Of a stretch of DNA of 64,000 nt, positions 6,059 through 29,439 are shown in pieces. Under the pieces are notes generated by a model that did no database searches, was not told the DNA's origin, and was given only the letters and a program-made list of their open reading frames with translations. Every line of letters starts with the position of its first letter. The first letter of the stretch is position 1. Position numbers and translations under genes: made by a program. The DNA is from a virus (lineage: Duplodnaviria; Heunggongvirae; Uroviricota; Caudoviricetes), in IMG/VR virus record IMGVR_UViG_3300027734_000050, positions 1 through 64,000 of that record; one strand, 5' to 3'.

Positions 6059-6059
6059 C

Positions 6060-8956: not shown

Positions 8957-9733
8957 ATGCCTGTATTCTTAGACTCAGTGATAGAGTTCTACATCACCAA
9001 TCAATGCAACCTGGCCTGCACCAACTGCAATAGGTTCAATGACCATGACTTTCGTGGACATTACTCATGGGAAGACTCAGCAGAGGCTGTTGAAGCATGG
9101 AGTAAACGCATCGATGCACCCATGCTCACCATCATTGGTGGAGAACCTAGCCTACATCCTGGATTGGAAACCTGGGTCTCAAATCTTCGTAGATTATGGC
9201 CCGACACTGAGATCATGATACAAAGCAACGGAACCAATCCAAAATTGGCTCGTGAACTTGATTTATGGACAAGATACCGCACAGGATGGGGTATAAGTGT
9301 ACACCAACCACAGATGAGGCACACATTGGAAAAACAATGGGATCAGATCACCCGAGGGTTTTTTGACAACATTGAATTCACTCCGGCTGCTGTGATTCCG
9401 CAAGGTGACGGGTTCACTGTACATCATAGTAATCCTGTAACAGCATTCAAGGCATGTACCATGCGGCACAGCCATACCATATTCCAAGGACGCTTGTATA
9501 AGTGTCCAGTGATGGCTGTATTGCCCGAGTTCCGCACTCAACATTCAGTTGAGATGGACTCAAGACAACAACAGTTGTTATCGCAGTATCAGCCTTTGAG
9601 TGCGGATTGTTTGGAACAACAGTTGATAGACTTTGTTGATACAAGACATCAACCGATCGATCAATGTGAATTTTGCCCTGGCGAATTTGATTTCCAGCCA
9701 GTGGTATTCCATAAAAGAAAAAAACTGCTCTGA
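8957..9733 (+). CDS. radical SAM protein (QueE/NrdG-like small rSAM)
   Basis: CNLACTNC is a CxxxCxxC motif at residues 17-24. IIGGEP motif also present. Confidence 0.65.
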   Translation: MPVFLDSVIEFYITNQCNLACTNCNRFNDHDFRGHYSWEDSAEAVEAWSKRIDAPMLTIIGGEPSLHPGLETWVSNLRRLWPDTEIMIQSNGTNPKLARELDLWTRYRTGWGISVHQPQMRHTLEKQWDQITRGFFDNIEFTPAAVIPQGDGFTVHHSNPVTAFKACTMRHSHTIFQGRLYKCPVMAVLPEFRTQHSVEMDSRQQQLLSQYQPLSADCLEQQLIDFVDTRHQPIDQCEFCPGEFDFQPVVFHKRKKLL

Positions 9734-9803
9734 TGGCGCAATTGGTAGACGCACTATCTTGAGGTGGTAGAAAGTGTGAGTTCGACTCTCACTCAGAGCA
9801 CCA
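9726..9803 (+). tRNA. tRNA, anticodon GAG (Leu-type anticodon but class I shape with a short variable loop)
   Basis: Acceptor GCTCTGA/TCAGAGC, discriminator A with CCA, T-loop GAGTTCGACTCTC and anticodon loop TTGAGGT. Confidence 0.6.
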
Positions 9804-9814
9804 AGAAATTATCG

Positions 9815-9893
9815 GCCCCGGTGGACAAATCTGGCAAAGTCGCTTCTCTCAAAAGGAAGAGTTCTGCGAGTTCAACTCTCGCCCGGGGTACCA
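9815..9893 (+). tRNA. tRNA, anticodon CAA (Leu-type anticodon, 3-bp D-stem, short variable loop)
   Basis: Acceptor GCCCCGG/CCGGGGT with ACCA end. T-arm GCGAGTTCAACTCTCGC. Anticodon stem CTTCT/GGAAG with loop CTCAAAA. Confidence 0.55.
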
Positions 9894-9900
9894 AATTATT

Positions 9901-9976
9901 GCAACTTTAGCTGATGTGGTCATAGCGCCGGTCTGAAGAGCCGGTGAACCAGGTTCGATCCCTGGAGGTTGCACCA
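9901..9976 (+). tRNA. tRNA-Phe (GAA)
   Basis: Acceptor GCAACTT/AGGTTGC. Anticodon loop CTGAAGA. T-loop GGTTCGATCC. CCA end. Confidence 0.75.
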
Positions 9977-9986
9977 TAAAACATGT

Positions 9987-10062
9987 TGGGGTGTCGCCTA
10001 GAGGCCTAAGGCACTGGTCTTTGAAATCAGTATCATGAGTTCGAATCTCATCTCCCCTGCCA
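9987..10062 (+). tRNA. tRNA-Gln (TTG)
   Basis: Gln-like TGGGGTG start. Anticodon stem CTGGT/ATCAG with loop CTTTGAA. T-arm ATGAGTTCGAATCTCAT. Ends GCCA. Two acceptor-stem mismatches. Confidence 0.55.
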
Positions 10063-10107
10063 TCTAACAAAGACCCGTCAACATGGCGGGTTATTAAAAA
10101 AGCAGTT

Positions 10108-10136
10108 GACCAGTATCGTGGTTGATGCTACAATAG
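10108..10136 (+). promoter_or_regulatory. sigma70-type promoter TTGACC-17-TACAAT
   Basis: ttgaccagtatcgtggttgatgctacaat lies upstream of tRNA-Glu. Confidence 0.5.
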
Positions 10137-10207
10137 AGACTAGTTAGAAAGAAGCACGGTGCATCGACGCTGTGCTGCAAGTTCGTTAAAAATTTCAGCA
10201 AGTATTT

Positions 10208-10282
10208 GCTCGGTTCGTCTATCGGTTAGGACGCTGCCCTTTCAAGGCGGAAAGACGAGTTCGATTCTCGTACCGAGTACCA
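10208..10282 (+). tRNA. tRNA-Glu (TTC)
   Basis: Acceptor GCTCGGT/ACCGAGT. Glu-like D-arm TCTATCGGTTAGGAC. Anticodon stem CTGCC/GGCGG with loop CTTTCAA. T-arm ACGAGTTCGATTCTCGT. CCA end. Confidence 0.8.
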
Positions 10283-10357
10283 TATTGAAGCACATTAAAA
10301 CACGCCCCTAGTAGCAGTAGCGAATCAAGGGTGGAAGGTTGAGTGTGCTTCAATATG
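10281..10357. repeat. 14-bp inverted repeat (catattgaagcaca / tgtgcttcaatatg) anchored on the CCA of tRNA-Glu, with a 49-nt loop
   Basis: Arms at 10281-10294 and 10344-10357. It joins the tRNA-Glu 3' end to the 5' end of the next tRNA-like element. Confidence 0.6.
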
Positions 10358-10422
10358 GTGATAGCTTAGTGGGAGAGTGCAGTCGTTGGCTGTGGGCACA
10401 GGTTCAAATCCTGTTCACTATT
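10355..10422 (+). pseudogene. degenerate tRNA-like element (acceptor and T-arm intact, no valid anticodon arm, no CCA)
   Basis: Acceptor ATGGTGA/TCACTAT. D-arm TAGCTTAGTGGGAGAGT. T-arm ACAGGTTCAAATCCTGT. Only 19 nt lie between the D-arm and T-arm, and these form a competing hairpin CTGTG/CACAG. Confidence 0.3.
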
Positions 10423-10434
10423 TCGTATTTTGCA

Positions 10435-10800
10435 AAAAGAAAACACTGTCATCTAGGACTTGTCGGGTGAATAAAACAGTTGGGTAAAAGTCCTTACGGC
10501 GAGTCGCTATATAAGAACACATTTCAGCGGGATAGACCGTGTTGGATAGTTTCTGTTTGGTACAGTATCCGAAGTGTGTTCCTATTTAGTAAAGAATCAA
10601 GTGGAAAGCAAGAGCCACAAAGTAAGCATCGCCGGGTCAGGAAATGTGTCCGGGACGTGTAGGCCGCGCAACCTATACAAACAACGATGGGGTAAGAGCC
10701 CTCATAACATTTTCGCCAAATTTAGGTCTCAAAGTGTTCATGGACGCACACAAGCCTGTCACGCTTGAAGAAGGGGATCGTTACCCCTTGGGACCGCCAA
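10435..10800 (+). other. ~365-nt non-coding spacer inside the tRNA array (possible ncRNA)
   Basis: Only short overlapping ORFs of 60-64 aa without RBS. Flanked by tRNA-like elements. Confidence 0.25.
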
Positions 10801-10806
10801 GTTTTT

Positions 10807-10944
10807 GCGCTGGATTGATATTGCGGTTGGAGTTGATCGCCCAATGGCAGACAGGTTTAATTCCTGTTAGGTGCACCAAGTTATGCAGTGATTGGAGAAG
10901 GCAGATGCCCCGTGCATCGCATACTAGTTGCCACAGAGGTTCGA
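10807..10944 (+). pseudogene. two degenerate tRNA-like elements, each ending ...GCACCAAGTT
   Basis: The elements at 10807-10878 and 10881-10944 each have a canonical T-arm (ACAGGTTTAATTCCTGT and AGAGGTTCGATTCCTTT) and a GCACCA 3' end. No convincing anticodon arm was found. Confidence 0.3.
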
Positions 10945-10969
10945 TTCCTTTGGCTGCACCAAGTTTTAT

Positions 10970-11048
10970 CTGTGTGTGAGAAAGTCCGGTCTAATCTACT
11001 CGCCTTGGAAGTGAGAAATCGTAGGTTCAAATCCTACCGCACAGACCA
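10970..11048 (+). tRNA. tRNA-like, anticodon TGG (Pro), non-canonical D-arm; possibly a pseudogene
   Basis: Acceptor CTGTGTG/CGCACAG. Anticodon stem CTCGC/GTGAG with loop CTTGGAA. T-arm GTAGGTTCAAATCCTAC. ACCA end. The 20-nt D region does not fold into a D-stem. Confidence 0.4.
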
Positions 11049-11259
11049 ATTTTTGAGAGTGTCAGCAAGAGAAAGTCACGCTGAAAAGCTTCTTCGAAGA
11101 GCTTGACAGTGTAACGCAACGGGGGGCGCGAATCCCCAGCAGCAATATAAGTGGACGTTGTGACAAGTATCCCAAGTGGCGTACCGAGACCTTGCCGGCC
11201 TTGTATAATAAGGTGAATGGTTCCGATAATATGGGCGGAACTACTCTCAAATTCAATCT

Positions 11260-11346
11260 GGAGACGTGTGCCGAGTGGCGAAGGCAGCTGACTGTAAATC
11301 AGTGACATAAGAAACACCGTAGGTTCGATCCCTACCGGCTCCACCA
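11260..11346 (+). tRNA. tRNA-Tyr (GTA), type II with long variable arm
   Basis: Acceptor GGAGACG/CGGCTCC. Anticodon stem GCTGA/TCAGT with loop CTGTAAA. Variable arm GACATAAGAAACACC. T-arm GTAGGTTCGATCCCTAC. CCA end. Confidence 0.75.
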
Positions 11347-11352
11347 TATTTC

Positions 11353-11427
11353 GGGGGATTAGTGATAATGGTAGCACATGTGCTTTGCAAGCATGAAGCA
11401 GGAGTTCGATTCTCCTATCCTCCACCA
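11353..11427 (+). tRNA. tRNA-Ala (TGC)
   Basis: Acceptor GGGGGAT/ATCCTCC has a G3:U70 pair. Anticodon loop TTTGCAA. T-arm AGGAGTTCGATTCTCCT. ACCA end. Confidence 0.75.
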
Positions 11428-12162
11428 TTACCGAAATGCACGTTGTCTGAATGCTTCACTGAATACGCCATCCACTCTCAACGAGTAGCAGGCTTGCGGT
11501 GCAGGATCTGACCCGTGATGATTATTGGTGTTGAACCAATTACAATTTCCTGATGAATAGATTTTTTGATCAGTTTCAACATCTAATAGATAAAATTTCT
11601 TCCGATCAGGAGCAAAGTCAATCCAGATGAATTCATCCGAAGCGGGGCGGCTATCATCTGCATAGTCGGTATGTATTGGACTATACCCGCCGGGATAGTT
11701 AATGAATAAAGTCGTGCGACCGTAGTCGCTAAAAATCTCTTGGCGATCAAGCCACTCATAGAAGAAGGCAAGTTGTATATCTTCTGGTAGCGCCACGCAT
11801 TCAGTGGCATGATGCTTGGTAGCGTAGTCTAATGCGTATCGACTGGTTATGGTAAATGTACATGCAGTAACATCTTTTTCAAATACAATGTAATTGGCAA
11901 ATTGATCGCATCTGATTAGATCAGCAACAACTTCTCGTAGGCTAGAGTCAGCGACCATGTCAGGGTTGTCTTCAAACTCATCTTGATAATCATGGGTGCC
12001 AAGACTACCATCTTTAAAAAGCGAACCGTAGAATTTGGTTGGCTTGAGCAGGTGATGATTTTTGGCAATAAATGCCGAGACATAAGGTTTGATTGCAAGG
12101 AGGCCGTTGAGGTCTATTAGATGGTCAAAATTTAAAAACGGTTGATTGTGTGCTAAGAACAT
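11428..12162 (-). CDS. cupin / 2OG-Fe(II)-oxygenase-like protein (aspartyl beta-hydroxylase-like)
   Basis: HTDYADD ... NWFNTNNHHG gives a possible His-x-Asp...His facial triad. It is the only minus-strand gene in the first half of the window. Confidence 0.35.
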   Translation of the reverse strand: MFLAHNQPFLNFDHLIDLNGLLAIKPYVSAFIAKNHHLLKPTKFYGSLFKDGSLGTHDYQDEFEDNPDMVADSSLREVVADLIRCDQFANYIVFEKDVTACTFTITSRYALDYATKHHATECVALPEDIQLAFFYEWLDRQEIFSDYGRTTLFINYPGGYSPIHTDYADDSRPASDEFIWIDFAPDRKKFYLLDVETDQKIYSSGNCNWFNTNNHHGSDPAPQACYSLRVDGVFSEAFRQRAFR

Positions 12163-12213
12163 AAAATATTTATTGCATGGTACTTTTTACTAAGTATTTT
12201 TAAGAGTTTATAT

Positions 12214-12292
12214 TCCGAGAAACCCGAGCTAGGTGCATGGGCGTGACTGTTAATCACTGGTTAGGTGGGTTCGAACCCCACACTCGGAGCCA
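12214..12292 (+). tRNA. tRNA-like, anticodon GTT (Asn), atypical D-arm
   Basis: Acceptor TCCGAGA/ACTCGGA with GCCA end. Anticodon stem GTGA/TCAC with loop CTGTTAA. T-arm GTGGGTTCGAACCCCAC. Confidence 0.5.
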
Positions 12293-12299
12293 AATTTTA

Positions 12300-12373
12300 G
12301 CCCTACTAGTACAATGGCAGTACACTGGTTTTGTAATCCTGTGATGGCAGTTCGATTCTGTCGTGGGGCACCA
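12300..12373 (+). tRNA. tRNA-Thr (TGT), weak anticodon stem
   Basis: Acceptor GCCCTAC/GTGGGGC. D-arm GTACAATGGCAGTAC. Anticodon loop TTTGTAA. T-arm GGCAGTTCGATTCTGTC. ACCA end. Confidence 0.6.
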
Positions 12374-12378
12374 CATAT

Positions 12379-13035
12379 ATGAAAAAAGCCGTGATCCTAG
12401 GCTGTAGCCATTCAGTTGGAGCAGAGATGCATCAAGAACCAGGATTGGTTTTTGACAGCTTCAATCAAGCCAACGACTATGAACAGACTCATTCTTATCC
12501 TGCTCAGATTGCACAGGTATTAGGATATGATCCAATCAATCTCAGCATATCAGGCGGCAGCAATGACGCCATGTTCAGACGGTTCACAGAACAAACTTTA
12601 ACACCCAACGACATAGTGATTGCTTGTTGGACAGGTGTGAATAGAAGTGAAATCTATGATAGCCAATGGATTGCAATGGCTCCGGGCGCAGTGCCAGATC
12701 AAGTCAATGCAGACTACTTTAAACAGTGGTTGTTGTATTCTGCCAACACTGAAGTAGGTATGTTGAATAAAACAAAAAACATCCTTGCACTCAATGCTCT
12801 GGCTCATGCACAAGGCATCCAAGTGATCAACATAGACAGTTTTTGGCCAGTGCCAGATGTTGCCTGGCCCAACTCAGTAGAGTGGGCTGTGAACATAGAT
12901 TTTATGGCATGGTGCCAACAACACAACTTTCCCCACACAGAGAAAGTTCATTTTTTCAAACCAGCACATGACTCGTTTGCCCAGCATGTGCTACAGAATA
13001 TTGCGGGTAGGGTGGCCACCACACCGGTCTCATAA
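12379..13035 (+). CDS. SGNH/GDSL-like hydrolase
   Basis: The N-terminal VILGCSHSVG is a GDS(L) block with a Ser nucleophile. ISGGSND is a block II-like motif. Confidence 0.45.
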   Translation: MKKAVILGCSHSVGAEMHQEPGLVFDSFNQANDYEQTHSYPAQIAQVLGYDPINLSISGGSNDAMFRRFTEQTLTPNDIVIACWTGVNRSEIYDSQWIAMAPGAVPDQVNADYFKQWLLYSANTEVGMLNKTKNILALNALAHAQGIQVINIDSFWPVPDVAWPNSVEWAVNIDFMAWCQQHNFPHTEKVHFFKPAHDSFAQHVLQNIAGRVATTPVS

Positions 13036-13075
13036 GCCAGGTGCATCGGCAGTTCGAATCTGTCACCCGCATCCA
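13002..13075 (+). tRNA. tRNA-like, anticodon CAT (Met/Ile2), small D-arm; overlaps the 3' end of the preceding CDS
   Basis: Acceptor TGCGGGT/ACCCGCA. Anticodon loop CTCATAA. T-arm GGCAGTTCGAATCTGTC. TCCA end. Confidence 0.4.
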
Positions 13076-13195
13076 AGTCAAGTCCATGCGTCACTCAAAC
13101 TGAATGAGTGTTTACCCGTCAGGGAGTCTCTGGACAGTTTTTCAAGTCCATACAGCCTCGATCTGATGGGGCCTCGTCACTGGACTGATTTCTTT

Positions 13196-13272
13196 ACCGC
13201 CTTGGCTCAACTGGATAGAGCACTGGATTACGAATCCGGGGGTTGGGAGTTCGAATCTCTCAGGTGGTACCA
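13196..13272 (+). tRNA. tRNA-Arg (ACG)
   Basis: Acceptor ACCGCCT/AGGTGGT. D-arm GCTCAACTGGATAGAGC. Anticodon stem CTGGA/TCCGG with loop TTACGAA. T-arm GGGAGTTCGAATCTCTC. ACCA end. Confidence 0.8.
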
Positions 13273-13277
13273 TTCAT

Positions 13278-13351
13278 GGCCCTTTAGTTAAAAGGTATAA
13301 CAGACGCTTGATAAGCGTCAGTCGGAGGATCGTTACCTCCCGGGGCTACCA
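13278..13351 (+). tRNA. tRNA-Ile (GAT) with non-canonical T-loop ATCGTTA
   Basis: Acceptor GGCCCTT/CGGGGCT. D-stem GTTA/TAAC. Anticodon stem GACGC/GCGTC with loop TTGATAA. T-stem GGAGG/CCTCC. ACCA end. Confidence 0.55.
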
Positions 13352-13356
13352 AACAG

Positions 13357-13385
13357 TTGACAACATTGTCAAAATGTTGTATAAT
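13357..13385 (+). promoter_or_regulatory. perfect-consensus sigma70 promoter TTGACA-17-TATAAT
   Basis: ttgacaacattgtcaaaatgttgtataat. Confidence 0.55.
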
Positions 13386-13490
13386 AGATTTTTTACACAG
13401 GAGCACAGCATGAAACATGCTAAACCATAGTGTCAATCCAGATCCCATGTAGGTCCGGGTTGGCACGTGAAAGACAATTTTACATACCAA

Positions 13491-13565
13491 CCCTCTAAGA
13501 TGTTAAGGCAGCATGCCGGACTCTTAATCCGTGACGTCCGAGTTCAAATCTCGGTGGAGGGACCA
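13491..13565 (+). tRNA. tRNA-Lys (CTT)
   Basis: Acceptor CCCTCTA/TGGAGGG. Anticodon loop CTCTTAA. T-arm CCGAGTTCAAATCTCGG. ACCA end. Confidence 0.65.
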
Positions 13566-13569
13566 ATAT

Positions 13570-13645
13570 GGGGCTATAGTTAAGCGGTTATAACATCACC
13601 CTTTTAAGGTGTAAGACCTCGGTTCGAATCCGAGTGGCCCTACCA
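13570..13645 (+). tRNA. tRNA-Lys (TTT)
   Basis: Acceptor GGGGCTA/TGGCCCT. D-stem GTTA/TAAC. Anticodon loop CTTTTAA. T-arm CTCGGTTCGAATCCGAG. ACCA end. Confidence 0.7.
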
Positions 13646-13796
13646 TTTAGTGAAACACTTTGCCCAAGCGAGAAACACATCTGTGGAGTCGCTCTCTGCA
13701 CGAGGATGTGAAAAGTCGGAATTATCCTTGCCCCCGCTCTTGGGGATGCGAATTAGGAAAAGGCAAAGGGAAGAGACAGAGTGTTTCACTAAATGG
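13643..13796. repeat. 17-bp inverted repeat (ccatttagtgaaacact / agtgtttcactaaatgg) anchored on the CCA of tRNA-Lys, with a ~120-nt GC-rich loop
   Basis: Arms at 13643-13659 and 13780-13796. A third copy of agtgaaaca lies at 13913. Confidence 0.6.
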
Positions 13797-14016
13797 TAAA
13801 ATTGAAGTTGACCTAGATCTATCCTGTGATGGATATGAGCAAGCGTGAAATATACGACATGTTGCCGGTGAGTCTGCGAGACTTGTTCTGGTCATGCCGA
13901 GTGCCTCAATATAGTGAAACAACAATCTCATCATGTGGAAGATGTAATACTTGCGTGACCTTGAAAGAACAAGGCATTCGCAAATAGAAAGCAAGGCATA
14001 ATTCGTACTATATAGT

Positions 14017-15549: not shown

Positions 15550-15569
15550 AAGTGTTATAATAGTTCTAT

Positions 15570-15645
15570 GGTGTCATTAGTGTAGTGGCCTGCACCCTGC
15601 TCTGTGAAAGCGGTAGTACCGGATCGATACCGGTATGGCACCCCA
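15570..15645 (+). tRNA. tRNA-His (GTG) with encoded G-1
   Basis: Extra 5' G precedes the acceptor GTGTCAT/ATGGCAC. Discriminator is C. Anticodon stem CTGCT/AGCGG with loop CTGTGAA. T-arm ACCGGATCGATACCGGT. CCA end. Confidence 0.8.
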
Positions 15646-15652
15646 AATTTTC

Positions 15653-15727
15653 AGTTGTGTGACGTAGATGGATGCGTACCGCCCTCATAAGGCGAGGAGG
15701 TTGGATCGATACCAACCACAACTACCA
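15653..15727 (+). tRNA. tRNA-Met/Ile2 (CAT)
   Basis: Perfect acceptor AGTTGTG/CACAACT. Anticodon loop CTCATAA. T-arm GTTGGATCGATACCAAC. ACCA end. Confidence 0.8.
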
Positions 15728-15730
15728 CAT

Positions 15731-15813
15731 GCCCTGGTGACTTATGCAAATTGGCACAGCTACTGGTCTTAGAAGCCAGGTTTTTGCGGGTTCGAGTCCC
15801 GCCTAGGGCACCA
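15731..15813 (+). tRNA. tRNA, 83 nt, anticodon TAG (Leu) with oversized D region; atypical
   Basis: Acceptor GCCCTGG/CTAGGGC. Anticodon stem CTGGT/GCCAG with loop CTTAGAA. T-arm GCGGGTTCGAGTCCCGC. ACCA end. Confidence 0.5.
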
Positions 15814-15870
15814 AGATGACTCGCCTTGATTGATGGCGTATAATAGGAAAAGTAGTCAATCACAAATCTC

Positions 15871-15945
15871 GGGGGATTGGTATAGTTGGTAACATACCGC
15901 CATGGCATGGCGGAGTCAGCGGCTCGAATCCGCTATCCTCCACCA
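15871..15945 (+). tRNA. tRNA-Ala (GGC)
   Basis: Acceptor GGGGGAT/ATCCTCC, identical to the other Ala tRNA including G3:U70. Anticodon stem CCGCC/GGCGG with loop ATGGCAT. T-arm AGCGGCTCGAATCCGCT. ACCA end. Confidence 0.75.
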
Positions 15946-15952
15946 ACAACAT

Positions 15953-16042
15953 AGAGGATGCAGTAGGATGGTTCCTACACCTGTTTGGAAAACAGGCGAC
16001 TGGCGTGAGCTGGTCGGGGTTCAATTCCTCCTTCCTCTGCCA
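15953..16042 (+). tRNA. tRNA-Ser (GGA), type II
   Basis: Acceptor AGAGGAT/TTCCTCT. Discriminator G. Anticodon stem CCTGT/ACAGG with loop TTGGAAA. Long variable arm. T-loop GGGGTTCAATTCC. CCA end. Confidence 0.7.
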
Positions 16043-16064
16043 CAACAATAGAAAGGAACAAGTC

Positions 16065-16493
16065 ATGAATGAATTTGATGTATTAGTGGGCAAGCGTATA
16101 AATGGCTTGTTTATAGCCAACGACAAGTGGACACTGGTATTCCGTGATGTGTCCGGGCGCCGTTATCGTTTTGACACCGAAAATGATTGCTGCAACTCTG
16201 TGTGGTTTAACCATGTGACAGGTGCAAACATCCTGGGTGAAGGCAATACCTTCGATCTGCTACGCGGTGCAGAAGTGTTATCAGTAGAAGCCAAGGGCTG
16301 GGATGAAAACCGCAGCGACGAAGATGGATACGAAGTGGTTCAAGATGCGTTCTGGACCATACGCACCAACCGTGGCTACATAGACCTTGAAGTGCGTAAC
16401 AGCCACAATGGTTACTATGGTGGCAGCGTGAGCTATAGCGGCACCAATGTGGGTGAGTTGGCCGACATGGTACAGATCACCGAAGACTTCTAA
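16065..16493 (+). CDS. hypothetical protein (~142 aa)
   Basis: Start at MNEFDV after the RBS AAAGGAACAAG. The upstream part of the 16005 ORF overlaps tRNA-Ser and was trimmed. Confidence 0.5.
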   Translation: MNEFDVLVGKRINGLFIANDKWTLVFRDVSGRRYRFDTENDCCNSVWFNHVTGANILGEGNTFDLLRGAEVLSVEAKGWDENRSDEDGYEVVQDAFWTIRTNRGYIDLEVRNSHNGYYGGSVSYSGTNVGELADMVQITEDF

Positions 16494-16570
16494 CTCTGTA
16501 TGGCGCAGCCCGGTAGCGCACTTGCATGGGGTGCAAGGGGTCGCAAGTTCGAATCTTGCTACAGAGACCA
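16494..16570 (+). tRNA. tRNA-Pro (GGG)
   Basis: Perfect acceptor CTCTGTA/TACAGAG. Anticodon stem CTTGC/GCAAG with loop ATGGGGT. T-arm GCAAGTTCGAATCTTGC. ACCA end. Confidence 0.75.
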
Positions 16571-16571
16571 C

Positions 16572-16645
16572 AGACTCTTAGTTCAATGGAAGAACGATAC
16601 CCTGACATGGTATAGAAACAAGTTCAATTCTTGTAGAGTCTACCA
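16572..16645 (+). tRNA. tRNA-Val (GAC)
   Basis: Perfect acceptor AGACTCT/AGAGTCT. Anticodon stem ATACC/GGTAT with loop CTGACAT. T-arm ACAAGTTCAATTCTTGT. ACCA end. Confidence 0.8.
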
Positions 16646-16730
16646 CTTGACAGGTATTGCGAATCCTGCTATAATTGTGGCATAGATAGAAAACATCTAT
16701 CCGTGCTCTTTAAAAATTTCGTAAGTTTTT

Positions 16731-16804
16731 GCCTCGTTAGTTTAATGGTAGAACTCCGTCTTTACACGGCGGTTGCGGCAGTTCAATTCTGTCACGAGGT
16801 ACCA
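16731..16804 (+). tRNA. tRNA-Val (TAC)
   Basis: Acceptor GCCTCGT/ACGAGGT. D-arm GTTTAATGGTAGAAC. Anticodon stem CCGTC/GGCGG with loop TTTACAC. T-arm GGCAGTTCAATTCTGTC. ACCA end. Confidence 0.8.
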
Positions 16805-16807
16805 AAT

Positions 16808-16885
16808 GTAGCGGTGGCGGAGAGGTCCAACGCAAGAGTCTGCAAAACTCTAACACCGTGAGTTCAAATCTCACCCGCTACTCCA
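16808..16885 (+). tRNA. tRNA-Cys (GCA)
   Basis: Perfect acceptor GTAGCGG/CCGCTAC. Discriminator U. Anticodon stem AGAGT/ACTCT with loop CTGCAAA. T-arm GTGAGTTCAAATCTCAC. CCA end. Confidence 0.7.
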
Positions 16886-17011
16886 TATATGAACACATTC
16901 ACGGTGGGGATACCAGCAACTGGACGCAGGGGCTATCCGAAAGAGCAGGCATGCTTACCGAAAGCTGGAGACGAGTGTGTTCTTATATGGACAGTTGGTC
17001 CAACAAAATAA

Positions 17012-17085
17012 CTCGGTATAGTGAAATGGTATCACCCGTGCTTTGGGAGCATGAAGCGGAAGTTCGATTCTTCCTACCGAGACCA
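17012..17085 (+). tRNA. tRNA-Pro (TGG)
   Basis: Perfect acceptor CTCGGTA/TACCGAG. D-stem GTGA/TCAC. Anticodon stem CGTGC/GCATG with loop TTTGGGA. T-arm GGAAGTTCGATTCTTCC. ACCA end. Confidence 0.75.
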
Positions 17086-17091
17086 AACAAC

Positions 17092-17178
17092 GCGACTGTG
17101 GCGAAATAGGTAGACGCCTCAGACTTAAAATCTGATGTCCGTAAGGGCGTACCGGTTCGATTCCGGTCAGTCGTACCA
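17092..17178 (+). tRNA. tRNA-Leu (TAA), type II
   Basis: Acceptor GCGACTG/CAGTCGT. D-arm GCGAAATAGGTAGACGC. Anticodon stem TCAGA/TCTGA with loop CTTAAAA. Long variable arm TGTCCGTAAGGGCGT. T-arm ACCGGTTCGATTCCGGT. ACCA end. Confidence 0.8.
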
Positions 17179-17180
17179 GA

Positions 17181-17255
17181 CTGGCGTTAGTATAATGGAT
17201 AATACAGCGGTCTTCTACACCGTGAATATGGGTTCGATTCCTGTACGCCGGACCA
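17181..17255 (+). tRNA. tRNA-Arg (TCT)
   Basis: Acceptor CTGGCGT/ACGCCGG. Anticodon stem GCGGT/ACCGT with loop CTTCTAC. T-loop GGGTTCGATTCC. ACCA end. Confidence 0.7.
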
Positions 17256-17263
17256 GAATATTG

Positions 17264-17354
17264 CCAGCGAGACTGGGTAGTCAGAGAGGTCTTATAAGCC
17301 TTTTAGCGCCAGATTAGCGTTCTTGAGAGAGTTCGAGTCTCTCCGCTGGTACCA
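17264..17354 (+). tRNA. tRNA, 91 nt type II-like, anticodon loop CTTATAA (TAT, Ile-AUA?) - identity uncertain
   Basis: Acceptor GCCAGCG/CGCTGGT. T-arm GAGAGTTCGAGTCTCTC. ACCA end. Candidate anticodon stem GAGGT/GCCTT. The long extra arm is poorly paired. Confidence 0.5.
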
Positions 17355-17365
17355 AACTGTAATGT

Positions 17366-17388
17366 GTAAGTGAGTAAGTAAGTAAAAT
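17366..17388. repeat. simple (GTAA)n-like repeat between tRNAs
   Basis: gtaagtgagtaagtaagtaaaat. Confidence 0.5.
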
Positions 17389-17462
17389 GTATCCATAGTG
17401 TAATGGCAGCATCGCGGTCTCCAAAACCGTCAGTCTAGGTTCGAGTCCTAGTGGGTACGCCA
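17389..17462 (+). tRNA. tRNA-Trp (CCA)
   Basis: Acceptor GTATCCA/TGGGTAC. Anticodon stem GCGGT/ACCGT with loop CTCCAAA. T-arm CTAGGTTCGAGTCCTAG. GCCA end. Confidence 0.75.
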
Positions 17463-17478
17463 ACAAAGAAAGTAAATC

Positions 17479-17961
17479 ATGAAAAAAATGGACCTAGAAA
17501 AAGTCAAAGCATTTATCCATGCACAAAGTCCTGAAACTTCTGTTTACCTGGGCTGCGATAGTGAAAGAGTTAAAGTAGATGGCGTATGGCATGCAGACTA
17601 TGCTCTAGCAGTGGTGGTGCATATCGATAGTTGCCATGGTTGCAAGATCTTTGGTGAAGTACACCGTGAACGCGACTGGGATCAACGCAGTGATAAACCT
17701 AGCATGCGACTGATGAACGAAGTTTACAAGGTGAGTGAACTGTTCCAAAAGATGGCAGATGTGTTAGAAGATCGACTGGTTGAAGTCCACTTGGACATTA
17801 ACCCTGATCAGATGCACAAGAGTTCTGTTGTGGTTAACCAAGCAATTGGATATATAAAGGGAACTTGTAATGTGATTCCAATGGTCAAGCCAAGAGCGTT
17901 TGCTGCTAGTTATGCAGCAGACAGACTAGATTGGGTGCTGAGCAATCGCAAAGCAGCCTAA
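17479..17961 (+). CDS. hypothetical protein (160 aa) embedded in the tRNA array
   Basis: ORF with RBS AAAGAAAGTAAATC upstream. No recognisable motif. Confidence 0.5.
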   Translation: MKKMDLEKVKAFIHAQSPETSVYLGCDSERVKVDGVWHADYALAVVVHIDSCHGCKIFGEVHRERDWDQRSDKPSMRLMNEVYKVSELFQKMADVLEDRLVEVHLDINPDQMHKSSVVVNQAIGYIKGTCNVIPMVKPRAFAASYAADRLDWVLSNRKAA

Positions 17962-18033
17962 CCCGGGCGGCGTGAAAGAGAGCCGTCAACAGCCCGTTTA
18001 GGGACGATTGGGTGAGAAGCCCATCCCAATACC

Positions 18034-18107
18034 GCGGGGTTCGTAAAATGGTATTACCTCATCCTTCCAAGTTGATGTCAGGAGTTCGATTCTCCTACCC
18101 CGCTCCA
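18034..18107 (+). tRNA. tRNA-Gly (TCC)
   Basis: Perfect acceptor GCGGGGT/ACCCCGC. Discriminator U. D-stem GTAA/TTAC. Anticodon loop CTTCCAA. T-arm AGGAGTTCGATTCTCCT. CCA end. Confidence 0.75.
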
Positions 18108-18367
18108 AGTCTATTTAGAATGTTAGAGGCACGAGTCCTGAGTCGTTGTGTGAATTCACTTTCGGTAAGAACGCCCTTGGCAAGATTGCACTTGCGGCAT
18201 GTGACTTGCAGATTGTTGTAAGTGGTTTCTCCACCCTGTGATTCAGGTATCACATGATCCATGTGGATTTCGGCACTGCTGAGATCTTCGTCACAATATA
18301 CACACCGAGGCCCATCTCGTTCAATGATTCGTTGGCGTAGGTTGCGTGGTATGTGTTGCTTCAACAT
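18095..18367 (-). CDS. HNH endonuclease (90 aa) inside the tRNA array
   Basis: CVYCDEDL...HMDHVIPESQGGETTYNNLQVTCRKCNLAKG is a canonical HNH with CxxC pairs. Its 3' end overlaps tRNA-Gly by about 13 nt. Confidence 0.7.
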   Translation of the reverse strand: MLKQHIPRNLRQRIIERDGPRCVYCDEDLSSAEIHMDHVIPESQGGETTYNNLQVTCRKCNLAKGVLTESEFTQRLRTRASNILNRLGAG

Positions 18368-18565
18368 CAGGAATATTTAAGATCAATCGGATCGGGCGAG
18401 TTAAAAACTCATTGACGATGGGCCCAACTGCAAGGGACCAAAAATTGAAACCAGTGCCTCTGACCCAACGAGGGAGATGATTAGTCATCATCATTACATG
18501 TGACTGGTGGGCTCCGGGTGTTGAACCTGACTGCCCTTAAACTCAAATGCAGTGCCCGATTTTGA

Positions 18566-18594
18566 TTGACTTGTATCGAGTTTAAATATATAAT
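18566..18594 (+). promoter_or_regulatory. consensus sigma70 promoter TTGACT-17-TATAAT upstream of tRNA-Ser(GCT)
   Basis: ttgacttgtatcgagtttaaatatataat. An almost identical module is found at 20427-20455. Confidence 0.6.
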
Positions 18595-18603
18595 AACAAC
18601 ATA

Positions 18604-18694
18604 GTGAGTTGGATGAGTGGCTTAAATCAACACCCTGCTAAGGTGTCGTCTCCAGTAATGGGGGCCGTGGGTTCAAATCCCACACTCACTGCCA
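18604..18694 (+). tRNA. tRNA-Ser (GCT), type II
   Basis: Perfect acceptor AGTGAGT/ACTCACT. Discriminator G. Anticodon stem ACACC/GGTGT with loop CTGCTAA. Long variable arm. T-arm GTGGGTTCAAATCCCAC. CCA end. Confidence 0.8.
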
Positions 18695-18710
18695 AACAAA
18701 TAGCACAAAA

Positions 18711-19403
18711 ATGAAATTAGTTTTTTGTTTTCCTGGCCAATCATTCAGCAAGAACTGGATGGCAGCGTGGAATGACACCATACGCTGGCTTTATCGAAAC
18801 AACATAGAATATGTGACAATAAATGCATATTCGCCAGTGATCTACAACTGTAGAAACATGCTGTTGGGGGCTACCGGTAATCCACCTAGAACTTTCCGAC
18901 CATTCAACGGCGTGCTAGATTACGATTGGATCATCTGGATTGACAACGATAACATCTGGACACCCGAGGATCTTGAACGACTGATCAGTGTTCCTGAACA
19001 CCAGATCGTCACTGGATTCTATATACAGCATGACAACCGAACTTATGCACAGGCTGTGTTCCACAGTGATAGTAAAACCGATTTGCTGTGGTTACCACGA
19101 GAGATGGTGCATGTAAATGGATATAGATTCCAGTTGGCTGCCTCAGGAATGGGATTCATGGCTGTGCAAAAAGGTGTGTTTGAATCCATGGAATGTCCGT
19201 TCTTCCGACCCGTTGAATACGAAATCAAAGATGATACAACTGCATTCTTATCAGAGGACACAGGCTTCTGCCACAGGGCAATAAACGCAGGATACCAAGT
19301 ATGGGCAGATCCCGGCATACAGGTCAAACATGAGAAGGCCTGGTTGTTAAGCGGTGACAGCGATCACGGCATCAAGCCCGAGAATGTTGTGTTAAATAGA
19401 TAA
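18711..19403 (+). CDS. putative GT-A-fold glycosyltransferase (DxD-type)
   Basis: WIDNDNIW has a DxD-like motif after a beta-strand. SEDTGFC is also present. 230 aa. The functional call is weak. Confidence 0.3.
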   Translation: MKLVFCFPGQSFSKNWMAAWNDTIRWLYRNNIEYVTINAYSPVIYNCRNMLLGATGNPPRTFRPFNGVLDYDWIIWIDNDNIWTPEDLERLISVPEHQIVTGFYIQHDNRTYAQAVFHSDSKTDLLWLPREMVHVNGYRFQLAASGMGFMAVQKGVFESMECPFFRPVEYEIKDDTTAFLSEDTGFCHRAINAGYQVWADPGIQVKHEKAWLLSGDSDHGIKPENVVLNR

Positions 19404-20446
19404 TGCAACCGCCCAAGTTCCTGTTCTTAGATATCAACCTACAATGCAATCTCAAATGCAAGACCTGCATGTATTGGACACGAGAAGAAGTTGTATTACC
19501 CACACACATATCTATCGAACAACGCAGTGATATCATTGCAGAGTTTGCTACACTGAATCCCCAAGGGGCTGTGGTGATCTGTGGTGGCGAAGCACTGATG
19601 AATCCTGAAAGGTATTGGCCTATAACAAGACAATGCCGTTCATTAGGACTAAGATGTTTGAGCGTGATGAATGGCACTATGGTCACAGATCTGTCGTTCG
19701 CTAAGAAATTGATAACGGAAGGCCCAAGCGAAATAACAATATCCTTGAACAGTTATATCCCAGAGGTGCATGATTCCACCCGTGGAGTCGCAGGATCATT
19801 TGACATGGCAGTGAATGCCATCCGGTTGTTGTTGCAGGCAAGAAAAGAATTAAACAGCAACACACCCATCTACGCCATGTCAGTGATGTGCGAACAGAAC
19901 TATCGAGACCTAGATCAGTTCTACGACTTTGTGTTGAATGATCTAAAGGCAGACAAGTTAAAGTTAAACTGGTTACAGCCCACATTTGGCACATTGCTGG
20001 ATCGTAATGGTGATCCACGGCCAGACAAGTTCTACGACAACAATGTGATCCGTGATCATGAAGCATTGTTTGAGATCTTGAATCACTGCACAGAGAAATA
20101 CCAGTTGAATCTGGATCCCGAATACATAGAAACAGTTCGCAAGTATCATCGCAGTGTGTTCAAGAATGCGGATGCAGTCACAGGCTGGGATGGTGACGGC
20201 ACAGAAGATGCCATATGCAACAGTTTCGATCGCAACATCATGGTCAATATGGACGGTGTTGCCCGACTGTGTTTTTCAGATCAGTTCCCTAGTTTCAAGA
20301 TTAGCAGGCCCGGTGATCTCGCACATTTGTGGCACAGTGCCGAACCAGTGAGAAATCTCATGAGACCGTGCAGACAGTATTGCGGAATCAGTCACAGCGT
20401 AAGGCGAGTCAATGCTACTAAGAAGATTGACATCTATCAAGTTTGA
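19403..20446 (+). CDS. radical SAM protein (SPASM/twitch-like, AnSME/PqqE-like)
   Basis: CNLKCKTC is a CxxxCxxC motif at residues 15-22. VICGGEALMNP is present. There are C-terminal Cys residues. Confidence 0.6.
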   Translation: MQPPKFLFLDINLQCNLKCKTCMYWTREEVVLPTHISIEQRSDIIAEFATLNPQGAVVICGGEALMNPERYWPITRQCRSLGLRCLSVMNGTMVTDLSFAKKLITEGPSEITISLNSYIPEVHDSTRGVAGSFDMAVNAIRLLLQARKELNSNTPIYAMSVMCEQNYRDLDQFYDFVLNDLKADKLKLNWLQPTFGTLLDRNGDPRPDKFYDNNVIRDHEALFEILNHCTEKYQLNLDPEYIETVRKYHRSVFKNADAVTGWDGDGTEDAICNSFDRNIMVNMDGVARLCFSDQFPSFKISRPGDLAHLWHSAEPVRNLMRPCRQYCGISHSVRRVNATKKIDIYQV

Positions 20447-20455
20447 ATATATAAT
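20427..20455 (+). promoter_or_regulatory. perfect-consensus sigma70 promoter TTGACA-17-TATAAT upstream of tRNA-Gly(GCC)
   Basis: ttgacatctatcaagtttgaatatataat followed by aacaacata, as at 18566. Confidence 0.6.
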
Positions 20456-20465
20456 AACAACATAA

Positions 20466-20540
20466 GCGGGCATGGTGCTAGTGGTAACACATAACTTTGC
20501 CAAAGTTAAGTTACGAGTTCGATTCTCGTTGCCCGCTCCA
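20466..20540 (+). tRNA. tRNA-Gly (GCC)
   Basis: Perfect acceptor GCGGGCA/TGCCCGC. Discriminator U. Anticodon stem TAACT/AGTTA with loop TTGCCAA. T-arm ACGAGTTCGATTCTCGT. CCA end. Confidence 0.8.
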
Positions 20541-20689
20541 TCAACAGCGGATAAGTTACATTATCCAGTATGAGTCACTAAGGTAGGTACCTAATCCTTA
20601 GGGCAAGTAACAGTATCAAAATGCGATGTAACAGGTGAGTAGTGATCTACTTCATAGGGGATACCTCAAAAATGTTCTCCACCAATTCT

Positions 20690-20777
20690 GGAAGTGTGGT
20701 AGAGAGGTCTATTACAGCAGTCTTGAAAACTGCCGGGTCGAAAGGCTCCGTGAGTTCGAATCTCACCGCTTCCGCCA
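20690..20777 (+). tRNA. tRNA-Ser (TGA), type II
   Basis: Acceptor GGAAGTG/CGCTTCC, close to E. coli tRNA-Ser. Discriminator G. Anticodon stem GCAGT/ACTGC with loop CTTGAAA. Long variable arm. T-arm GTGAGTTCGAATCTCAC. CCA end. Confidence 0.8.
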
Positions 20778-20832
20778 ACAACACGGCTCTGCCCTGTGCT
20801 CTTTGTCAAATCACAGCAGGGTTCTTTTACAT

Positions 20833-20907
20833 CGGCCTTTGGTGAAATGGATATCATACTGGGCTTCGAACCCAGTGGTGGGAGTTCGATCCTCTCAGGG
20901 CCGGCCA
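20833..20907 (+). tRNA. tRNA-Arg (TCG)
   Basis: Acceptor CGGCCTT/AGGGCCG. Anticodon stem CTGGG/CCCAG with loop CTTCGAA. T-arm GGGAGTTCGATCCTCTC. GCCA end. Confidence 0.7.
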
Positions 20908-20912
20908 AACTG

Positions 20913-20987
20913 CTCCGTGTAGTTCAAAGGATAGAACGAGGTCCTCCTAAGACTTAAATATCAGTTCAATTCTGGTCGCGGAGACCA
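20913..20987 (+). tRNA. tRNA-Arg (CCT)
   Basis: Acceptor CTCCGTG/CGCGGAG. D-stem GTTC/GAAC. Anticodon stem AGGTC/GACTT with loop CTCCTAA. T-arm ATCAGTTCAATTCTGGT. ACCA end. Confidence 0.7.
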
Positions 20988-20991
20988 ACAT

Positions 20992-21065
20992 GCTCCTATA
21001 GTTAAATGGCAGAACACATCCTTGGTAAGGATGAGATACAAGTTCGATTCTTGTTAGGAGCACCA
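20992..21065 (+). tRNA. tRNA-Thr (GGT)
   Basis: Perfect acceptor GCTCCTA/TAGGAGC. Anticodon stem CATCC/GGATG with loop TTGGTAA. T-arm ACAAGTTCGATTCTTGT. ACCA end. Confidence 0.8.
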
Positions 21066-21694: not shown

Positions 21695-21748
21695 GATTGA
21701 CACACCCGGGCTTTTCGTGTATACTGACATTTTTAACCAAGGAGTCTT

Positions 21749-29384: not shown

Positions 29385-29439
29385 CAAGAAATTCAAGATC
29401 ACTTACAATACACTCATCAACAACAGAAAGGTCTCCGAT

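Follow-up and report, generated by a model that had tools for sequence, protein, structure and literature searches.

Arrays of dozens of co-oriented transfer RNA (tRNA) genes, some of them with a transfer-messenger RNA (tmRNA), small open reading frames (ORFs) and homing endonucleases, are known from jumbo and huge phages and from the tRNA region of phage T5, their presumed role being codon supply and the replacement of lost or cleaved host tRNAs. An array of this kind lies in the stretch analysed here, 64 kb (hereafter, the window) of the 80.7-kb freshwater-lake metagenome contig held as IMG/VR virus record IMGVR_UViG_3300027734_000050. It shares with the jumbo, huge and T5 arrays the co-oriented tRNA genes, the tmRNA and the interspersed small ORFs; it differs from them in reading all 61 sense codons with almost no redundancy, in its two-piece tmRNA and in an unusually large share of non-canonical members. 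The array itself is thus of a known kind, and what it adds is a set of conserved tRNA architectures that are not described in the literature found, irregular tRNAs in general having been noted in phage clusters (PMC5389517; PMC7609411). Very probably, the region constitutes a complete translation-supply module of a large freshwater phage, in which the odd members are for the most part functional, conserved designs.

The ARAGORN calls in the window amount to 37 tRNA genes and a single tmRNA, every one on the plus strand and none on the minus strand; 36 of the 37 fall within 11.3 kb (9727-21065), in agreement with the at least 36 well-formed tRNAs that an original prediction, made from the letters alone, had placed there, and the remaining one lies at 3924-3998. 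The gathering score of the Rfam tRNA model is passed by 33 array tRNAs and by the tRNA at 3924 (34 in total, with E-values of 1e-6 to 1e-15), laxer filters add the element at 10725-10799 (37.1 bits), and the intron mode of ARAGORN yields no further tRNAs. Nearly all array genes carry an encoded CCA end, and the density of tRNA genes in 9727-21065, with so many genes clustered on one strand and passing tRNA models, is beyond chance. The interval holds 40 tRNA-like elements, among them 37 credible decoders, or 38 counting the tRNA at 3924; their 35 distinct anticodons (a G34/U34 pair per four-codon box, plus ACG, C34 extras and UAU) read all 61 sense codons under standard wobble rules, and therefore the phage could translate largely independently of the host tRNA pool. 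The array foreseen as near-complete is in fact complete, and the odd-shaped members are exactly those that complete the decoding set: the anticodons UAG, GUU, GUC and UAU are represented by one credible gene apiece. The previous view of an incomplete set arose because default searches skip such genes, ARAGORN overlooking Leu(UAG) at 15731-15813 and Asn(GUU) at 12214-12292 (both recovered by the relaxed as well as the mitochondrial mode) and Rfam, in the default scan, overlooking tRNA-Asp. Two smaller counts of that prediction are also revised, since there are three Ser tRNAs (GGA, GCU and UGA) instead of four, no fourth appearing at any ARAGORN threshold, and since only two of the three CAT copies lie within the array, the third being that at 3924.

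Relatives were collected from IMG/VR by four routes: the embedded radical SAM protein (locus L001), a 27-mer of Leu(GAG) (L002-L005), a 28-mer of the tRNA with a UAU anticodon (more than 119 contigs) and the Asn tRNA (L124); the related loci counted below form a set of 127 viral loci with 1338 distinct tRNAs. No close relative, and no match beyond single tRNAs, came from a megablast comparison of the whole array with 50,697 phage records. For five of the unusual tRNAs, alignments of the distinct variants were tested against 500 shuffles each, using the cloverleaves proposed here. In tRNA(UAU) (47 sequences), 99.6% of the cells are paired and 13 pairs have changed on both sides, a number reached by 0/500 shuffles; the corresponding values are 100%, 10 pairs and 0/500 for Leu(CAA) (9 sequences), 100%, 6 pairs and 1/500 for Leu(GAG) (5 sequences), 98%, 8 pairs and 5/500 for Asn (10 sequences), and 96%, 6 pairs and 17/500 for the tRNA(CAU) at 13002 (9 sequences), all these shuffle counts overstating significance because the aligned sequences are phylogenetically linked. 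The observed pairing percentage and covariation score are reached by no shuffle in any of the five alignments, and sliding the partners by 1-3 columns reduces pairing to at most 60%, mostly to 30-50%, in all of them. The numerous independent double substitutions hold regardless of kinship.

These data bear directly on the picture drawn by the original prediction, that of an incomplete and eroding array, devoid of tRNA-Asp, whose odd elements are pseudogenes in the course of losing their arms, and in which the tRNA-like elements between 10355 and 11048 have no foldable D-arm. Two of the latter fold as cloverleaves. The element at 10725-10799 is tRNA-Asp(GUC) (ARAGORN 105; Rfam 37.1 bits, cut-off 29; loop CUGUCAC; G73), with a clean cloverleaf and with 11 variants in related contigs whose acceptor and anticodon stems show compensatory changes; its discovery inside the array is the very observation that the prediction had named as speaking against itself. 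The element at 10970-11048 is an ordinary tRNA-Pro(UGG) (Rfam 55.8 bits). Decay is plausible for the other three. That at 10355-10422 has C33, a weak D-arm and, as had been stated, no CCA end, and it still scores 103.9 in ARAGORN and 46.9 bits in Rfam; in L001 its anticodon has changed from GTT to GCT and its U55 to G, and it is probably a pseudogene or a non-decoding element. Element A (10807-10878) has a T-arm, an ACCA end and weak acceptor pairing, with the anticodon arm missing; it is called by neither ARAGORN nor Rfam and is identical in L001. Element B (10884-10960) has an 8-nt loop, is found by ARAGORN at relaxed threshold only (92.9) and has no homologue in the 127 related loci, the L001 sequence being different there. 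At a permissive threshold, Rfam gives no match for elements A and B, for the tRNA(CAU) at 13002 or for conserved hairpin RNAs of the region. Invariant features lost and an unconserved anticodon, the marks of a pseudogene, are thus seen in 10355-10422 and more weakly in elements A and B, and are not seen in Asp, Pro, Asn, Leu(UAG), tRNA(UAU) or the tRNA(CAU) at 13002; the three elements fit decay, or could alternatively be processing signals for neighbouring structured RNAs. As an account of the whole array, however, erosion is unlikely: besides the conserved Asp and the normal Pro at 10970, the atypical Leu(GAG), Leu(CAA), Leu(UAG), Asn, tRNA(UAU) and tRNA(CAU) at 13002, like Asp, have viral homologues in which the stems are kept by compensatory double substitutions across many contigs, and several of the odd tRNAs are the sole decoders of their codons.

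The clearest departures from the rules of tRNA structure concern leucine. Leu(GAG) at 9727-9803 (77 nt) and Leu(CAA) at 9815-9893 (79 nt) have the class-I shape already recognised in the original prediction, and the 83-nt tRNA with anticodon TAG noted there is recovered at 15731-15813 by relaxed and mitochondrial ARAGORN and by Rfam (23.9 bits). The variable loops of the three are 5-6 nt long, short of the variable stem-loop of at least 10 nt that defines class II, and only Leu(UAA) at 17092 has the long arm. The closest described counterparts, the class-I tRNA-Leu of animal mitochondria, likewise have no long variable arm and are recognised mainly via A73 and A14 (PMC9976931); they differ from the phage tRNAs, in which D-arm and T-loop are fully of the bacterial type and for which a bacterial leucyl-tRNA synthetase (LeuRS) would be the charging enzyme. 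Leu(GAG), Leu(CAA) and Leu(UAG) all have a typical bacterial Leu D-arm, a U ending the variable loop and A73. In Leu(GAG) the D-arm is of the Leu type, GCG-CAAUUGGUAGA-CGC, with G10-C11-G12, A14, A15, G18, G19 and A20a retained. The identity elements used by Escherichia coli LeuRS (A73, A14, A15:U48, G18G19 and A20a, as listed in PMC9976931) are present in these tRNAs, the numbering of the Leu(UAG) D-arm being uncertain, and E. coli tRNA-Leu variants without the long arm are still active if A73 and the contacts between D- and T-loops are kept (PMC9976931); by analogy, leucylation of the armless phage tRNAs is plausible.

Armless Leu tRNAs are a recurrent phage design. Leu(GAG) is present in 4 other viral contigs; Leu(UAG) shows a compensatory change relative to L001 (U5-A68 to C5-G68) and has a 94% identical, unannotated gene in Synechococcus phage BUCT-ZZ01 and an 81% identical one in Rhizobium phage RHph_I1_18. 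Leu tRNAs of at most 81 nt account for 71 of the 148 distinct Leu tRNAs in the 127 related loci, including 39/41 of the Leu(CAA) ones; the records of Salmonella phage STG2 (Demerecviridae) and of one Acinetobacter phage list Leu tRNAs of 77 and 80 nt, respectively, and two Synechococcus phages from freshwater also carry short ones according to ARAGORN. No open-access paper on phage tRNA-Leu without the long arm was found. In the BUCT-ZZ01 record (L135), the 83-nt Leu(UAG) occupies 122321-122403, where no tRNA is annotated.

The opposite departure is seen in tRNA(UAU), the type-II-like tRNA with loop CTTATAA of the original prediction, which is recovered at 17263-17354 with a size of 92 nt. It folds with a 7-bp acceptor stem, a 5-bp T-stem, a 4-bp D-stem with a 4-nt D-loop, a 6-bp anticodon stem, A73 and a variable arm made of a 5-bp stem and the loop CAGAUUA. 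Viral contigs that carry it number more than 119, with at least 116 copies in at least 46 variants recovered from such contigs, and it also occurs in three cultured phages; in distant homologues the variable loop is constant and the stem is altered by compensation. The 93-nt tRNA-Ile(tat) of Sinorhizobium phage Phosso (82% identity) shares this loop and shows compensation within its variable stem, and Synechococcus phage S-SRM01 (L134) has an unannotated 90-nt long-armed tRNA(UAU) at 32943-33032 of its record. Variants with the D-loop UGAC or UGAU have the T-loop UUUGAUU, a switch of the tertiary pair G19:C56 to A19:U56 that speaks for a genuine L-shape. In a set of 185,579 reference genomes, the motif is confined to 2 contigs of metagenome-assembled genomes (MAGs), both of them short dense tRNA arrays; the family is essentially restricted to phages. 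The Phosso records, and the paper on the Sinorhizobium jumbo phage AP-J-162, for which a phage-specific tRNA-Ile(UAU) was likewise reported (PMC11242549), treat this molecule as an ordinary codon-compensating tRNA, and no open-access paper on the long arm of phage tRNA-Ile(UAU) or on its wide spread was found. An 8/4 fold of the allo-tRNA type was considered for tRNA(UAU) and rejected: all 5 T-stem pairs are paired, 4 of them covary, including the first, and A8 is unpaired.

This shape raises the question of what AUA means in these phages, since a class-II tRNA with A73, as in tRNA-Leu, might be charged by the anticodon-blind LeuRS or seryl-tRNA synthetase (SerRS), with Leu or Ser as the meaning of AUA, or mistranslation of host proteins, as the outcome. 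There are precedents on both counts. The nev-tRNA-Ile(UAU) of nematodes combines, like the phage tRNA, a long variable arm with a UAU anticodon and is charged only with leucine (PMC3333845); allo-tRNAs, which insert serine (PMC7609411), have a long variable arm and a compact Sec-like D-arm, and UAU is among their predominant anticodons (PMC5389517). The constancy of the loop CAGAUUA in three distant lineages may point in the same direction. The nev-tRNAs are derived from tRNA-Leu, whereas the phage tRNA has no Leu D-loop elements, its 4-nt D-loop being without the A14, A15 and A20a needed for leucylation, and AUA behaves as Ile. It has the long variable arm and the non-Ser anticodon by which allo-tRNAs are recognised, but it is a 7/5 molecule with A73 and with C2-G71 in 41/47 variants, which are not Ser features, C2-G71 being an antideterminant against E. 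coli SerRS (PMC9976931). The UAU anticodon, A37, A38 and A73 expected of a tRNA-Ile that reads AUA are all in place, U34, A35, U36, A37 and A73 being invariant and A38 present in 46/47 variants, which fits Ile identity.

The use of the codon points the same way. AUA makes up 291 of 15,823 codons in the window (18.4 per 1000) and 31% of the Ile codons of this phage. In 1929 orthologous ORF pairs from tRNA(UAU)-carrying phages, ATA is exchanged with ATT (1381), ATC (894), GTT (427) and GTA (372) and rarely with the Leu codons TTA (125) and TTG (90); ATT and ATC exchange in the same way as ATA, and AUA differs in this from the Leu codons, which exchange among themselves and with ATG. A recoding of AUA to Leu or Ser was rejected on this Ile-like exchange pattern, and charging of tRNA(UAU) by LeuRS or SerRS is altogether very improbable. 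To judge from these sequences, AUA is most likely read as Ile, with tRNA(UAU) as its decoder.

Other members depart from the canon in ways that are also conserved. The tRNA-Asn has U1-A72, G73, the loop CUGUUAA and a D-helix that is long and irregular (CCCGAGC[UAGGU]GCAUGGG); its anticodon stem has 4 bp, and the mismatch at 7:66 is conserved. The tRNA(CAU) at 13002 has a tiny D-arm and a 7-bp anticodon stem with one bulge; position 1:72 is mismatched in 8/9 homologues, as in an initiator, and the three anticodon-stem G-C pairs of initiators are absent. At its 5' side, this tRNA gene shares 34 nt with the end of the ORF at 12379-13035. The Ser(GGA) tRNA at 15953 has a G8 that pairs and a conserved U7xU66 mismatch, with compensation at 1:72 and 4:69 in the L124 homologue; it scores 41.8 bits with the tRNA-Sec model, under the cut-off of 47, and 33.2 bits with the Rfam tRNA model, and an 8/4 arrangement is possibly a slightly better fit than 7/5, 8/4 forms of tRNA-Ser and tRNA-His having been reported in phage tRNA clusters (Mukai et al. 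2017, PMC5389517). The T-loop AUCGUUA, correctly noted before in Ile(GAT) at 13278-13351, is shared with Asp, some Ile(GAU) homologues having AGCGUUA, and AUCGAUA is found in His and in the tRNA(CAU) at 15653; T-loops with A54 occur in 56/1338 distinct tRNAs of the related loci, and a few have G55. The ORF at 12379-13035 encodes a DUF6071 protein, and its TAA stop sits in the anticodon loop (CTCATAA) of the tRNA(CAU).

The layout of the array suggests how it would be expressed. The tRNAs and the tmRNA stand head to tail on one strand and would be split into several short transcription units, each with a near-consensus sigma-70 promoter from which host RNA polymerase would transcribe. Perfect TTGACA-17-TATAAT promoters at 13357, 16647 and 20427 each lie directly upstream of a tRNA sub-cluster, and so do near-perfect ones at 10106, 15816 and 18566. 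By our own estimate, chance would yield about 0.005 perfect matches in the region; three sites match at 12/12 positions and two at 11/12, one of these two just upstream of a tRNA sub-cluster. Release of the tRNAs would fall to RNase P and 3' processing enzymes of the host, and charging to its aminoacyl-tRNA synthetases. Three Leu tRNAs have lost the long arm while keeping what would be the bacterial LeuRS elements, tRNA(UAU) has gained an arm and most likely reads AUA as Ile, tRNA-Asn and one tRNA(CAU) have apparently rebuilt D and anticodon arms, and three short elements are apparent remnants. The phage would then translate its own codon mix, with its frequent AUA, largely without the host tRNA pool, and the benefit would lie in codon supply and in resistance to the loss or cleavage of host tRNAs. 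The tmRNA is of the two-piece type, scoring 120.2 bits with RF01850 (cut-off 84) and 120.2 bits with RF04321 (cut-off 47), and its tag frame is present.

Several observations weigh against this reading. To the kinship of the aligned sequences must be added that the ORF pairs of the codon test are not independent either and that low-level ambiguous decoding of AUA would remain compatible with the result of that test. Promoter-like sites number 28 in total against 23.3 expected from shuffles, so that only the perfect matches and their positions stand out. Finally, there is no capsid, tail or terminase gene in the 64-kb window, and the viral origin rests on the relatives and on PHROG hits. A bacterial chromosomal tRNA island would account for the missing virion genes and for the solute-binding protein, the sugar-nucleotide enzymes, the MoxR/VWA pair and the many radical SAM enzymes in the window, and tRNA(UAU) does occur in two MAG bins. 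Yet the relatives found are without exception viral contigs of IMG/VR (up to 480 kb), homologous tRNAs are present in cultured phages, the ORFs embedded in the array match PHROG-only families, HNH endonucleases are present, and the two genomes with tRNA(UAU) among 185,579 hold it on short array-only contigs; a chromosomal island is extremely unlikely, and a phage genome is the probable location.

If the array belongs to a phage, its odd shapes (Leu tRNAs without the long arm, an Ile tRNA with one, T-loops with A54 or G55 and rebuilt D-arms) might owe something to evasion of host defences that cleave or modify tRNAs, which would extend the translation-supply module proposed here and not replace it. 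Phage tRNAs escape anticodon nucleases by sequence changes, and single ones defeat PARIS and retrons (PMC10264068, PMC11464382, PMC11555353); the designs recur in phages of unrelated hosts, and a P-loop kinase and a metallophosphoesterase that resemble an RNA end-healing pair adjoin the array and travel with such arrays. On the other hand, the present analysis identified no nuclease with specificity for the variable arm, T-loop or D-arm of bacterial tRNAs, no ligase was found, and relaxed constraint or drift in a shared phage tRNA pool fits the data equally well; the paper on bacterial Schlafen nucleases gives no evidence of class-II-specific cleavage in bacteria. Evasion can thus be put forward only tentatively. 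Somewhat more doubtful is the idea that the structural classes have been swapped on purpose and that the phage tRNAs form a semi-orthogonal decoding set born of host-phage conflict, not plain codon supplements. If so, the arm of tRNA(UAU), whose CAGAUUA loop is fixed across phages of cyanobacteria and rhizobia and other freshwater phages, would be a handle for a partner, such as a U34 modification enzyme, a synthetase contact that offsets the poor UAU anticodon or a nuclease shield, and the armless Leu tRNAs would evade a class-II-recognising factor of the host.

Within the array, the embedded ORFs encode radical SAM enzymes and members of phage-only PHROG families without known function; the radical SAM ORFs match no specific NCBIfam family above cut-off, and therefore no tRNA-modifying role can be claimed for them. 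One ORF within the array (11428-12162) is on the minus strand, the sole one there, and has no family match; ORFs for HNH-type endonucleases flank the array at 3382-3795 and 22658-23650, the second with a NUMOD3 motif. Upstream (6039-7117), adjacent ORFs encode an AAA_33 P-loop kinase (with PHROG polynucleotide kinase/ATPase matches) and a calcineurin-like phosphoesterase (phrog_547), which resemble an RNA end-healing pair and have homologues in 18 and 36 related tRNA-array loci, respectively; no RNA ligase was found beside them. Next to this pair, the ORF at 7254-8483 (409 amino acids) has an invariant SGGxDS motif and 106 metagenomic homologues and no Pfam, PHROG or PDB sequence match; its structural model, although confident (predicted local distance difference test, pLDDT, 92.9), gives weak matches to PP-loop enzymes (E about 1e-3; template modelling (TM) scores 0.2-0.35), the best being LarE, asparagine synthetase, GMP synthase and TrmU. 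These neighbours hint at a role in tRNA repair or modification.

Further features of the window and its relatives lie outside these subjects. Structured non-coding elements between the tRNAs (16886-16990, ~10510-10590 and 10284-10354) are conserved and belong to no Rfam family; the first (~100 nt) has a closing helix UAUAUGAACACAUUC / GAGUGUGUUCUUAUAU whose pairing is held by compensatory changes in L080 and L001, and the second a similar one, GAACACA/UGUGUUC. With the betaproteobacterial and with the general permuted model alike, the tmRNA reaches 120 bits, which may hint at a betaproteobacterial host; it has a homologue of about 80% identity in L001, is followed in the window by a strong intrinsic terminator, and another promoter-like site stands at 21697, just beyond that terminator. 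Related arrays differ in gene order, a sign that they may often be reshuffled at tRNA boundaries; a second tRNA-Glu(UUC), with the T-loop AUCGUAA (3601-3675), is found in L001 together with a tRNA-like element with a 2-nt anticodon call (3187-3256), and L124 has an 81-nt tRNA called Tyr(AUA) (6951-7031). Downstream, four consecutive ORFs at 28914-34516, including those for a MoxR-type AAA ATPase and a DUF2201/VWA protein, contain 0 ATA among 1222 codons against about 22 expected from the average of the window, which suggests recent acquisition from an AUA-avoiding genome, possibly that of the host. On the minus strand, at least 7 paralogous radical SAM ORFs, 3 of them with SPASM domains, form a run at 45554-55686, near a carbamoyltransferase and the sugar-nucleotide enzymes (epimerase, DegT aminotransferase and oxidoreductase) at 35962-39007.

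Table 1. Positions in the window of tRNA genes, tRNA-like elements, promoters, tmRNA and terminator.
Feature	Position	Strand	Support
tRNA(CAU), 75 nt, canonical, 5.7 kb upstream of main array	3924..3998	+	ARAGORN 121; Rfam 75.5 bits
tRNA-Leu(GAG), 77 nt, class-I shape, 5-nt variable loop, A73	9727..9803	+	ARAGORN; Rfam 55 bits; 5 homologues
tRNA-Leu(CAA), 79 nt, class-I shape, A73	9815..9893	+	ARAGORN; Rfam; 9 variants
tRNA-Phe(GAA)	9901..9976	+	ARAGORN; Rfam
tRNA-Gln(UUG)	9987..10062	+	ARAGORN; Rfam
Sigma-70-like promoter TTGACC-17-TACAAT, before Glu sub-cluster	10106..10134	+	10/12 matches, TG extension
tRNA-Glu(UUC)	10208..10282	+	ARAGORN; Rfam
Degenerate tRNA-like element, 68 nt, called Asn(GTT)	10355..10422	+	ARAGORN 103.9; Rfam 46.9 bits
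tRNA-Asp(GUC), 75 nt, G73, loop CUGUCAC, T-loop AUCGUUA	10725..10799	+	ARAGORN 105; Rfam 37.1 bits
tRNA-like element A: T-arm, ACCA end, weak acceptor pairing	10807..10878	+	sequence and fold only
tRNA-like element B: 8-nt anticodon-like loop, mismatched stems	10884..10960	+	relaxed ARAGORN only, 92.9
tRNA-Pro(UGG), 79 nt, C1-G72, A73, long D-loop	10970..11048	+	ARAGORN 110.8; Rfam 55.8 bits
tRNA-Tyr(GUA), 87 nt, long variable region	11260..11346	+	ARAGORN; Rfam
tRNA-Ala(UGC), G3-U70	11353..11427	+	ARAGORN; Rfam
tRNA-Asn(GUU), 79 nt, non-canonical	12214..12292	+	relaxed ARAGORN only; 10 variants
tRNA-Thr(UGU)	12300..12373	+	ARAGORN; Rfam
Non-canonical tRNA(CAU)	13002..13075	+	ARAGORN 104.7; no Rfam match; 9 variants
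tRNA-Arg(ACG)	13196..13272	+	ARAGORN; Rfam
tRNA-Ile(GAU), T-loop AUCGUUA	13278..13351	+	ARAGORN; Rfam
Consensus promoter TTGACA-17-TATAAT	13357..13385	+	12/12
tRNA-Lys(CUU)	13491..13565	+	ARAGORN; Rfam
tRNA-Lys(UUU)	13570..13645	+	ARAGORN; Rfam
tRNA-His(GUG), encoded G-1 opposite C73, T-loop AUCGAUA	15570..15645	+	ARAGORN; Rfam; G-1 kept in homologues
tRNA(CAU), T-loop AUCGAUA	15653..15727	+	ARAGORN; Rfam
tRNA-Leu(UAG), 83 nt, short variable loop, enlarged irregular D-arm, A73	15731..15813	+	Rfam 23.9 bits; ARAGORN -mt exact bounds
Promoter-like site ATGACT-17-TATAAT	15816..15844	+	10/12
tRNA-Ala(GGC)	15871..15945	+	ARAGORN; Rfam
tRNA-Ser(GGA), 90 nt, possibly 8/4	15953..16042	+	ARAGORN 104.7; Rfam tRNA 33.2 bits
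tRNA-Pro(GGG)	16494..16570	+	ARAGORN; Rfam
tRNA-Val(GAC)	16572..16645	+	ARAGORN; Rfam
Consensus promoter TTGACA-17-TATAAT, TG extension	16647..16675	+	12/12
tRNA-Val(UAC)	16731..16804	+	ARAGORN; Rfam
tRNA-Cys(GCA)	16808..16885	+	ARAGORN; Rfam
tRNA-Pro(UGG), copy 2	17012..17085	+	ARAGORN; Rfam
tRNA-Leu(UAA), 87 nt, sole class-II-shaped Leu tRNA here	17092..17178	+	ARAGORN; Rfam
tRNA-Arg(UCU)	17181..17255	+	ARAGORN; Rfam
tRNA(UAU), 92 nt, long variable arm	17263..17354	+	ARAGORN 104
tRNA-Trp(CCA)	17389..17462	+	ARAGORN; Rfam
tRNA-Gly(UCC)	18034..18107	+	ARAGORN; Rfam
Promoter TTGACT-17-TATAAT	18566..18594	+	11/12
tRNA-Ser(GCU), 92 nt	18603..18694	+	ARAGORN; Rfam
Consensus promoter TTGACA-17-TATAAT	20427..20455	+	12/12
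tRNA-Gly(GCC)	20466..20540	+	ARAGORN; Rfam
tRNA-Ser(UGA)	20690..20777	+	ARAGORN; Rfam
tRNA-Arg(UCG)	20833..20907	+	ARAGORN; Rfam
tRNA-Arg(CCU)	20913..20987	+	ARAGORN; Rfam
tRNA-Thr(GGU)	20992..21065	+	ARAGORN; Rfam
Two-piece (permuted) tmRNA, tag ANDEQFALAA	21285..21718	+	ARAGORN; RF01850 120.2 bits; RF04321 120.2 bits
Intrinsic terminator after tmRNA	21669-21696	+	-

In summary, the array as such is ordinary, and what sets it apart is that its rule-breaking tRNAs are conserved and widespread designs: the long arm is absent in about half of the Leu tRNAs of a whole phage group, and a long-armed UAU tRNA is carried by more than 119 viral contigs, yet appears to read AUA normally as Ile. For annotation, the lesson is that default finders skip the sole credible decoders for the Asn and Leu(UAG) codons of such an array. 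For the biology of these phages and their hosts, the natural variants may serve as test cases for recognition by LeuRS and isoleucyl-tRNA synthetase (IleRS), for the reading of AUA without lysidine and for the shaping of phage tRNAs by tRNA-targeting immunity.

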